Assembly (NCBI GenBank): GCA_963845185.1
Contig: CAWJRG010000006.1
Span: 83,388-147,387, forward strand
DNA from: an uncultured bacterium
GTDB lineage: Bacteria; Oederibacteriota; PGYV01; CAWJRG01
DNA length: 64,000 nt
Direction: 5' to 3'
Below are positions 30,001 to 33,000 of this stretch, piece by piece (the first letter of the stretch is position 1; each line of letters opens with the position of its first letter). The position numbers were made by a program.

Positions 30001-33000
30001 GCAACAATAACGCCTACATACACAATTTCGCCGACTTATACAATCACAAACACTTATACGTTTACGTTTACTATAACAGAAACATATACTAATACGCCCA
30101 CTTTTACTATATCACCAACCGGCACAATTACGAACACTTATACATCAACTATAACCATATCTCAAACCAATACGATTACAATAACACAAACACTGACACC
30201 TACGGCAAGCATGACATGTACAATAACCGTAACGCCCACATCGGTAATACCATTTTGCCTTACATTATATAAAAATTCGCCCAACCCATGTTTAAACGGA
30301 ACGAATATAATTTATCAATTGTGCGACGAGGCAGAAGTTAATGTAAAAATATACACAATAAGCGGCGAGGTTGTGGTGGAGTTAACACAACAGGGGCAGC
30401 CTGGAATGAACAGCATATACTGGGACACCAAAAACAAAGCAGGCAGGGGTGTGGCGAGCGGAACATTTATTTACAGCATAGAGGCAGTTGGAAAGTCAAA
30501 GCAAAAGGCTTGGGGAAAGATGGCGGTGGTGAAATGAAATTCAAGATTCAGAATGGGAAGTGGGAGAACACGCTGGTCAATATTGAAGTTCAGCGCTTGC
30601 TGGAGAAAGGCTGATTTTAAGAAACAGTGGTTTTTAATGCAATAATTATTGAAACTTTTTAGCATATAATTTGTCTAAATAATAAAGGTTTATATAAAAA
30701 TTTATTGCCAAAATTAAGCCTAAATGGTGTATAATTGTTTCGATAATAATATAGTTTGTAGCTGATTATAAGCAGGAGAAATTAAAATACAGGAGGGTTA
30801 TTATGAGAAAGATATTATTATTTGTCGTTTTTGGCATGGTTGTGTTTTTTAACAGTCTTTACGCAGGGGCGGAGCTTGTCGGCACAACGAGCACTAATTT
30901 CCTTAAAATCCCGCCTTTTGCCAGGGCAGAAGGCATGGGAGAGGCATATTCCGCCATATCAGACGGCACATACGGCCTGTATTACAACCCCGCTGGAATA
31001 GGCTCGATAATAGGATATGAGGCCCAGGCGAGCCATATAGCCTGGTTCCAGGACATAAATTATGAATTTGTTTCCTTTGTTGGTTCGTTCCCGCATGCCG
31101 ATGATATTGGAAAGTTCGGCATAGCTATCGCATGGCTGCAGGTAAACAACATGGCCAGGACATCTGTATCGCCGTCCTACGATTCATCCTATTTAAACAG
31201 CATAAACCCGGACAGCCTGATAAGCGGCAGTTTTTCCCCTTTTGATTATTCGGTTATACTCGGGTACGGGCAGGACATAAATGAGAATTTCAGCGCCGGA
31301 TTGACGCTCAAGATTAATTCGGAAAACATAGATACTTTCAGCGGCGAGAATGTGGCGGGAAATTTAGGAGTAATGTATAAGCTGGCGCTGGATAATAATT
31401 TTATCAGGGCAGGGTTGACTATTTCAAACCTCGGCATGGGTTTAAAGATGAGCACCTCTTCTTTCAGCACGCCGCTGAATATGCAGATCGGTGTGGCAGA
31501 CCAGATTAATTTATTCGGGAACGAGCTTACCCTGGCAGGGCAGGTCATACCGCAGACAGATTACAACCCTATATGCGGCGTTGGCGCGGAATACTGGGTA
31601 GACAACATAATGGCGCTAAGGCTGGGCTACGAATTCGGTGCGTTTACCCAGCCGACATTCGGCGTAGGCTTAAAATACGCGGACATCGAGTTTGACTACG
31701 CTTTTGTAAGCTATGATGAACTGGGAAATACCAACAGGGTTTCACTGGTTTATTCCTGGGGCACGCCGCCTTTGAAGCTGAAAACCACCCCTGCGGTTTT
31801 TTCGCCCAACGGAGATAAATACATGGACTGGACATATTTTTTCCCTTCGACAAAACTGCCCAATAAAATAAGGTCGCTCAAAATAGACATTTATGACGAG
31901 ACCGGGCAGACGCTTTTAACAAGCATTCAGGCTAAAAGCGGGTTTGACAAATACATGGCATGGGACGGCAAGGCAAACGGCGTTGTTTTAAAAGACGGTG
32001 TGTACAAAGCAAAAGCAACGGCAGAATACGACAACGGGAAATCGGAGTCAAACGAAACTACAGTGGAAGTAGACAATACGCCGCCTGAAGTGAGGGTCGA
32101 CGCTGAGCCGAAACTTTTAAGGCTTGGCCAGGAAAACCTGATGATACCGGCGACATTCACCCTTTTCGCGCATGACAAAAATAACATAGGGGCATGGCAG
32201 TTTACAATATGGGACAAGGACAAAAAGGTATTCTTTTCAACACAGGGCAAGGGCGAACCGCCTATTTCGTACATATGGGACGGCAAAGGGAACAACGGCG
32301 ATTACGTGAATACCGGAAATATTTATTATTACAGCTTAACCGCTTACGACTCGGTGGGAAACAAGGCGCAGACACCGGCTCAATCGCAGGTTGTGCTGCT
32401 TAAGGAAATAAAACTCACGTTCTCGTCTGATACGCTGTTTGACCTTGGCAAGGCAGACGTCAAAATATCAGCTTATAATATCCTGAAGGGTATGAAAGAA
32501 ACACTCGACAAATACCCGGAGAGCGACATAGTAGTCGCGGGCTATACAGACAATACCCCGGTTATGGCAGGGAAATACGGTTCAAATACGGAGCTGTCCA
32601 AAGCAAGGGCGGATGCTGTCAAGTTTTTCATGGTAAACCTGCTTGAAATGGACGAGAACAGGATAAAGACAGAAGGCTACGGCGAAGCGCAGCCCATAGC
32701 GCCAAACGATACGGATGAAGGCAGGCAGAAAAACAGGCGTGTTGAGATAATAATAAAAAGCACCATATATAAATAATCAAAGTCAATTACGAATCATACC
32801 CGCCGGCTCCTGCCGGCGGGGTTTACTGATTGCCGAAGGAGTTCAATGATTTTCAAGGAGTGGACATGAAAGAAAATAAAATTAAGGCAATAATCATTTC
32901 AGGCATAATTTTATTTTATTGTTCGCAAAGAGCAACGGCCTGCGTTTCATATTCTGATGATTTCAGCAACCCGGCCACGATTAATTATTACAACTATTTT

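Follow-up and report, generated by a model that had tools for sequence, protein, structure and literature searches.

We describe here an outer membrane barrel protein that is joined in one chain to a predicted wall-binding domain and that seems, judged from tag sequences and gene order, to be paired with one subtype of the C-terminal tags (CTDs) of secreted proteins. The gene lies on the forward strand (30803..32776) of the 64,000-nucleotide stretch of DNA that was analysed as a whole (the window), and encodes 657 aa in a single frame: a signal peptide, a barrel of the PorV/PorQ family, two Ig domains and an OmpA-like C-terminal domain (OmpA-C). The protein is probably a single-chain counterpart of PorP-PorE, that is, a static, wall-fixed anchor for cargo with the tag subtype termed W here, which also tethers the outer membrane. 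Neither the components nor the logic of such a fusion is new; the new and testable lead is the apparent pairing with one tag subtype, which a preliminary description of this DNA had missed.

Domain architecture and predicted fold

All features of the fusion are encoded on the forward strand. A Sec signal peptide covers approximately residues 1-22 (30803..30868; judged by eye, with a helix at residues 2-19 in the fold model) and is followed by an N-terminal plug (residues 23-70, 30869..31012), of which residues 23-36 are in contact with the tag of the cargo in the modelled complex described below. The 14-strand outer membrane barrel (residues 72-320, 31016..31762) has PorV as its nearest solved fold. 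The 335-residue tail beyond the barrel, in the same frame, consists of a FlgD_ig/CHU_C-like Ig domain (residues 323-425, 31769..32077), a second Ig domain (residues 426-533, 32078..32401), both presumably periplasmic, and an OmpA-C domain predicted from Pfam and conserved residues to bind peptidoglycan (residues 536-655, 32408..32767). In line with the preliminary description, which had placed a PorV/PorQ match in the N-half and OmpA at the C-end, the NCBIfam PorV/PorQ family profile NF033709 matches residues 28-318 with 143.6 bits (cut-off 90), and Pfam finds OmpA at 545-645, FlgD_ig at 351-409 and CHU_C at 330-407. The equivalog cut-offs are missed for PorV (NF033710, 49.1 versus 250) as well as for PorQ (NF033711, 73.2 versus 220), and the PorP/SprF family PF11751 gave no match at E 0.01. 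The fusion is a member of the broad PorV/PorQ family, not PorV.

Folding from the single sequence had failed in the preliminary description, an obstacle that was overcome with AlphaFold2 on an alignment of 83 rows. In the resulting model (pLDDT 85.5, pTM 0.62) a plug and 14 membrane strands, which reach to approximately residue 319, are followed by two beta-sandwiches and the OmpA-C fold. PorV ranks first among its structural matches (8gl6_F; Z 33.0, rmsd 4.1, 290 residues aligned), ahead of FadL (Z 29.1) and the Bacteroides BAM-complex barrel 9hiv_F (Z 25.1). A wall-anchored FadL-like channel for hydrophobic nutrients, comparable to the dual role of OmpM, would fit the matches of FadL, TodX and CymD to the barrel at Z 25-29 and the NPA-type plug motif in the fusion alignment. 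We consider it very improbable, however: PorV outscores these proteins by fold, the 60 PDB sequence matches listed include no barrel other than PorV, the Pfam scan gave no PF03349 match in the fusion protein, and the neighbouring genes encode cargo, with no transport genes seen.

Since the strand number is even, general barrel topology would place the tail in the periplasm. In the OmpA-C domain F546, D583 and R602 are invariant in 83/83 alignment rows and N595 is present in at least 90%; D583, N595 and R602 pair, by motif order and not by direct alignment, with D576/N584/R591 of PorE, whose wall contacts as given in the accessible text of PMC7192894 serve as reference. That the fusion is built for tethering to the cell wall, as had been proposed, is well supported by this modelled topology, with a C-terminus on the periplasmic side after strand 14, and by the conserved Asp/Asn/Arg residues. 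The contrast drawn at the same time with Bacteroidota was overstated, because OmpA-C has already been proposed there to fix a cargo barrel to the wall, in the two-protein PorP-PorE complex (PMC9143113, PMC12618676, in the accessible text).

Fusion copies and other barrels in the genome

The genome (99% complete) contains 40 matches to NF033709, 37 of which were assigned as genes, and ten OmpA matches. Profile searches recovered six fusions, the number counted before; these six genes, holding both barrel and OmpA, account for 6/10 OmpA domains. We distinguish four classes. Class A comprises the window gene (C6:114190) and copies at C10:689147 (80% identical) and C10:781060 (60%), class B a copy 40% identical to the window gene (C9:786483), class C a copy at C9:170784, and class D a copy with three Ig domains and a divergent OmpA in which Asp is replaced by Asn (C5:773336). 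As had been noted, four copies (of the five that are unbroken) retain both motifs, LSxxRA and NRRV. The copy described as split by a frameshift is that of class C, with the break inside the OmpA domain. Class C-sized frames are unbroken in other genomes of the order. Genes split into two ORFs occur at 24152-25613 and 34082-35722 of the window and at L002:14062-16510, L005:7505-8748 and L006:7785-9830, and include what we take from sequence to be rpoN and gyrA. Several such cases suggest that the assembly contains indel errors, and the frameshift of class C may be one of these artefacts; a search of sequencing runs for the frameshifted copy yielded one run with a word share of 0.06 and listed no RNA run. 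The window also holds transposase-like ORFs at 51002-52455 and 59370-61687, one pair of which is presumably istA/istB of the IS21 type.

The remaining four OmpA proteins are MotB, a PorE-like protein with PD40 repeats and OmpA, and two proteins of 325-331 aa. The PorE-like protein has 508 aa and lacks TPR repeats (L007:7610-9133, G000:C10:815606-817132). An OmpA class of 540-600 aa was found repeatedly across the order. In the genome, the search for Pal gave no match above its cut-off. Other periplasmic tails are also found on PorV-family barrels: of 30 proteins scanned, ten carry TPR, two Fn3 and three a single Ig domain. Such modular tails may route cargo to different partners.

Secretion system and cargo genes

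The genome encodes a SprA-like ORF of 2145 aa, which scores below the family cut-off, and 157 CTD genes according to an iterated profile built in this analysis. A full-length PorU was not found, as NF033707 gave short stretches only, 50/51 of them in its CTD part, and GldM, the one motor part covered by the search, had no match in the genome. A CTD gene lies immediately upstream of 25/37 PorV-family genes, compared to 73/2279 other genes. Among the six fusions this holds for three, including the window gene, which has CTD cargo genes both upstream and downstream. The upstream gene (28741..30537, forward strand), the candidate cognate cargo, encodes 598 aa with a PQQ-type beta-propeller, a Thr-rich stalk and a W-type, type A-like CTD (30250-30534). 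It passes the type A profile TIGR04183 (27.5 versus 23), and type B TIGR04131 is absent among the matches listed for it. Downstream, on the same strand, follow a gene for a 416-aa protein with a lectin-like domain, a stalk and a W-type CTD (32830..34080), a PQQ-propeller cargo gene in two ORFs of 325 and 196 aa that ends in a W-type CTD (34082..35722), and a gene for an 806-aa NHL-repeat cargo, again with a W-type CTD (35833..38253). The W cargos scanned thus include propellers of the PQQ type and of the NHL type as well as a lectin-like domain, carried on Thr-rich stalks. A scan for promoters and terminators between 28500 and 33200 was uninformative (18 promoter-like sites versus 12.6 expected, 4 terminator-like sites versus 4.7). 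The internal Ig domains of the fusion are distantly tag-like, but were rejected as secretion tags, since they are internal and come after strand 14, on the side of the periplasm.

The class C fusion (L006:7785-9830) is followed by two TPR genes and lies approximately 9-11 kb upstream of the SprA-like gene (G000:C9:181574-188011 in the genome studied) on the same strand in 6/6 genomes examined, whereby in G012 and G013 the spacing is based on the OmpA match alone. This arrangement and the lack of a GldM match would suit a carrier with weak or late wall binding that docks to SprA and extracts W cargo, wall capture serving as a one-way ratchet without a PorLM motor, or else a holder of the translocon. 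We regard this as quite improbable, however, because approximately 30 other barrels without a wall domain pair with cargo, so that the tether is not a general driver; moreover, the genes between the class C fusion and the SprA-like gene are mixed, and GldM was the one motor part covered.

Apparent pairing of the fusion with the W tag

The W set was defined as those CTDs at least 40% identical to the CTD of the gene upstream of the window fusion, which applies to 28/157 in the genome. W tags occur in 24/24 genomes of the order with 128 matches. Many W-type tags carry two cysteines near the N-terminal end, a consensus feature that could possibly form a disulfide. We examined 125 W tags (27 from the genome itself, 89 in fetched stretches, four of which had little room, and 9 by coordinates), leaving out about three at contig edges. 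For seven of the 125 the next gene encodes a barrel, in all seven cases a class A fusion. Both class A copies of the genome itself that have an upstream CTD gene follow a W tag, whereas W is absent from the other 23 CTD-barrel pairs (22 plain barrels and the class C fusion). Across genomes, fusions of the class A/B type with an upstream CTD gene follow a W tag in 8/9 cases, and the ninth has one downstream. W makes up 7/51 tags in genome G017 and 5/62 in G019, and two fusions of G017 follow W tags. Before other barrels a W tag was never found (0/53 pairs: 23 from the genome itself, 13 from G017 and 17 from G019). Since neighbours of fusions served to build the W profile, the seven positive cases are circular, which leaves the zero for the 53 other pairs as the only free result; the genomes compared are related and the pairing counts are not independent. 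An apparent exception (L308), with a W tag and then a barrel, was rejected because a 157-aa gene intervenes and the barrel is not one of those that NF033709 matched in G023. Tags other than W precede the class C fusion and one copy of class B. From these gene neighbourhoods it seems that the W subtype is paired with this fusion barrel.

Adjacency to cargo is scattered over the fusion tree. Among the class A and B copies of the tree set a CTD gene lies upstream in 9/65 rows, none in 52 and 4 are at an edge; the stand-alone core copies sit among housekeeping genes. On the tree of 70 rows (one 555-aa copy left out) the starred branches force 7 changes, and a single clade of the six cargo-adjacent class A copies is rejected with a p-AU of 1.1e-5 (34 rows; test chosen after the first tree). 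This scatter could be one old linkage that was lost many times. A mirror-tree comparison of barrel and tag similarity in 22 non-redundant pairs of the genome gave no correlation (Spearman 0.08, p 0.18), and signal came from near-duplicates only.

Modelled complex of barrel and tag

Modelled together, barrel residues 22-322 and the upstream W tag reached a score of 0.92 in three runs, with 0.00 for the best control, but the controls held no CTD of another subtype, so that the score says nothing on W specificity. The same mark was reached by 116/157 solved pairs and 2/215 mismatched pairs. The runs share at least 97% of contacts, and the pLDDT of the partner is at least 91. All seven outer loops together with the plug contact the tag in the model, in agreement with the predicted topology and with the binding mode of PorV in the accessible text of PMC10994853. 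Because a PorV-CTD complex of this kind has already been solved, the score shows likeness rather than binding, and may reflect memory of that complex. The modelled interface shows no excess of conservation over the remaining residues of loops and plug (0.61 versus 0.59).

Distribution across genomes and phyla

The fusion is carried by 24/24 genomes of the order, and each of the 23 other genomes, for which matches had been reported before, has at least one near-full-length match. In 15 near-complete genomes the four classes recur as frames of 630-820 aa with an OmpA match, a recurrence judged by frame length, with barrels confirmed by overlap for G017, G019 and G023 only. Genome G014 has only four OmpA matches, all in frames of 660-769 aa. 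Frames of 457-460 aa with PorV-family and OmpA matches leave no room for Ig spacers (G019:C1:1103454-1104662, G023:C80:31472-32614). The labels given to related proteins and loci are Goldiibacteriota, Goldbacteria or FCPU426. The layout is not unique to this order, an idea we rejected, since it is also found in Elusimicrobiota and Spirochaetota. Six of the 61 sampled genomes of the phylum recorded as Elusimicrobia have the full layout among the scored candidates (up to 20 per genome). All five of these six genomes that were searched encode a SprA-like gene, and 8/8 Elusimicrobiota fusion loci have a CTD gene directly upstream. Often this is a cap-like CTD protein of 165-261 aa, consisting of one Ig domain and the CTD, whose stop abuts the start of the fusion (L183-L188, L194, L195). 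Five genomes of the same sample encode a barrel-less Ig-Ig-OmpA protein of 365-388 aa with a signal peptide (L189-L193). The order of a CTD gene and then a PorV-family barrel gene is, without a formal count, usual in Zixibacteria, Elusimicrobia, Ignavibacteria, Cloacimonadota, WOR-3, Latescibacterota and others (L046-L112).

Long proteins of 1000-2250 aa, some labelled Spirochaetota or Treponemataceae, combine 8-16 Ig repeats with OmpA. The N-terminal barrel of the long spirochaete forms is homologous to the fusion barrel (hhalign 98.9-99.4%), and the Ig-OmpA part of the long forms matches the Leptospira Lsa66 family. From 80 spirochaete-type loci 32 passed the full-length filter and 30 of these had an upstream gene; a CTD gene was found in none of the 30, neither upstream nor anywhere in the fetched stretch, so that the barrel-Ig-OmpA layout can do without cargo. 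It is a widespread but unstudied class of proteins. In the literature searched, mostly open papers in their main text, we found no description of such a fusion, and a term search of the accessible text of the Goldbacteria paper PMC7031533 found 'type IX' only in one reference title.

These homologues bring up a purely structural role, in which the fusion would be an OmpA equivalent on a FadL/PorV barrel, its Ig repeats setting the distance between membrane and wall, with no cargo binding and only incidental neighbours. The spirochaete forms, the recurrence of four old classes (by ORF length) across the order, the sizes of the OmpA frames in G014, the lack of a Pal above cut-off and the solitary core copies are all in line with such a tether, and for the FadL-like barrels of T. 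pallidum, which have periplasmic tails, no secretion role is described in the accessible text of PMC8407342. Yet it would leave unexplained why W tags are found beside these barrels and never beside others, why all eight Elusimicrobiota loci are adjacent to cargo, and the complex model. We therefore consider a role in tethering only to be unlikely, though it deserves to be kept in mind.

Proposed mechanism

In the anchor model that we favour, the outer loops and the plug of the barrel would bind the CTD of secreted proteins, while the periplasmic tail, with two Ig spacers and OmpA-C, would hold peptidoglycan. Cargo would exit through the SprA-like pore, be caught on the barrel and stay immobile on the cell surface, with no sortase needed. 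Class A copies would serve the W subtype: a stand-alone core copy would take up many orphan W cargos, with extra copies inside W-cargo cassettes. The fusions would double as the main tether of the outer membrane to the wall in this Pal-less lineage. While layout, conservation and gene-neighbour pattern are observed, and fold, topology and tag binding are modelled, we infer wall binding, docking to SprA, static anchoring and subtype specificity. Hard to square with an anchor is that in the published model, according to the accessible text of PMC10994853, the carrier has to depart from SprA; a tether would be in the way of this unless wall capture follows.

A further-reaching idea is doubtful, but worth stating: in a type IX-like system without motor or sortase, the barrel chosen by the tag would decide the fate of the cargo. 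Wall-fixed barrels would catch the W cargo, and export would become one-way once peptidoglycan has captured the barrel tail. The same chain would then be an overlooked tether of several phyla, with the number of Ig domains (2-3 here, 8-16 in spirochaetes) as a ruler of periplasm width.

The anchor model suggests a route for a sortase-less type IX-like system, with surface retention by non-covalent capture on a wall-fixed barrel, and a tag code that would sort cargo to fixed or free barrels. The gene fusion lends support to the wall-anchoring model of PorP-PorE, itself proposed but indirectly shown, and names a candidate for the main outer membrane tether of Pal-less phyla. Being a single chain, the protein is easily tested and is a potential immobile anchor for surface display.

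Comparison with known systems

Several known systems share parts of this layout; what is said of them here follows the accessible text of the papers cited. Classical OmpA likewise joins an outer membrane barrel to OmpA-C, and an OmpA survey counts any barrel with PF00691 as OmpA (bioRxiv 10.1101/2021.05.31.446380). In contrast to classical OmpA, the barrel here has a plug and 14 strands, not 8, and Ig spacers separate it from OmpA-C. A homologous Ig-Ig-OmpA module is found in Leptospira Lsa66/LIC10258 (NF053608), reported as a surface adhesin (PMC3130794); the NF053608 profile matches only the Ig part of the fusion. The UPF0164 FadL-like barrels TP0548, TP0859 and TP0865 of T. pallidum share the 14 strands, the plug and a periplasmic C-terminal extension, but their extension is TPR-like, has no wall-binding domain, and the proteins are interpreted as transporters (PMC8407342).

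PorV of the Bacteroidota type IX secretion system (6h3i_F, 8gl6_F; PMC10994853) is the nearest solved fold, with plug and outer loops as the modelled CTD site, and the cargo tag here retains the C-terminal Lys, a further likeness to that system. Unlike PorV, the fusion scores below the equivalog cut-off, has its 335-residue tail with a predicted wall-binding domain, and is one of approximately 37 paralogues in a genome where no PorU or GldM was detected.

The closest likeness in function would be to PorP-PorE-PG1035 of Porphyromonas gingivalis and the operons of SprF-like and PorE-like genes in Flavobacterium johnsoniae, which have in common with the proposed anchor a 14-strand barrel, a cargo CTD on the outside and a link to peptidoglycan by OmpA-C. 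In F. johnsoniae SprF-like shuttle genes follow cargo genes (PMC12618676), and this order of cargo and barrel is common to both, as an orphan barrel for orphan cargos would be; here the order applies to the window copy and two more of the six fusions, while most Goldbacteria copies stand alone. The systems differ in that one chain with Ig spacers takes the place of a barrel and a TPR/propeller lipoprotein, and in that a PorV/PorQ-family barrel goes with tags scoring as type A, compared to PorP and type B. Furthermore, OmpA-C lies in the frame of the barrel, whereas the separate PorE-like gene lies elsewhere in the genome. By analogy, the fusion probably works like PorP-PorE without being a member of that group.
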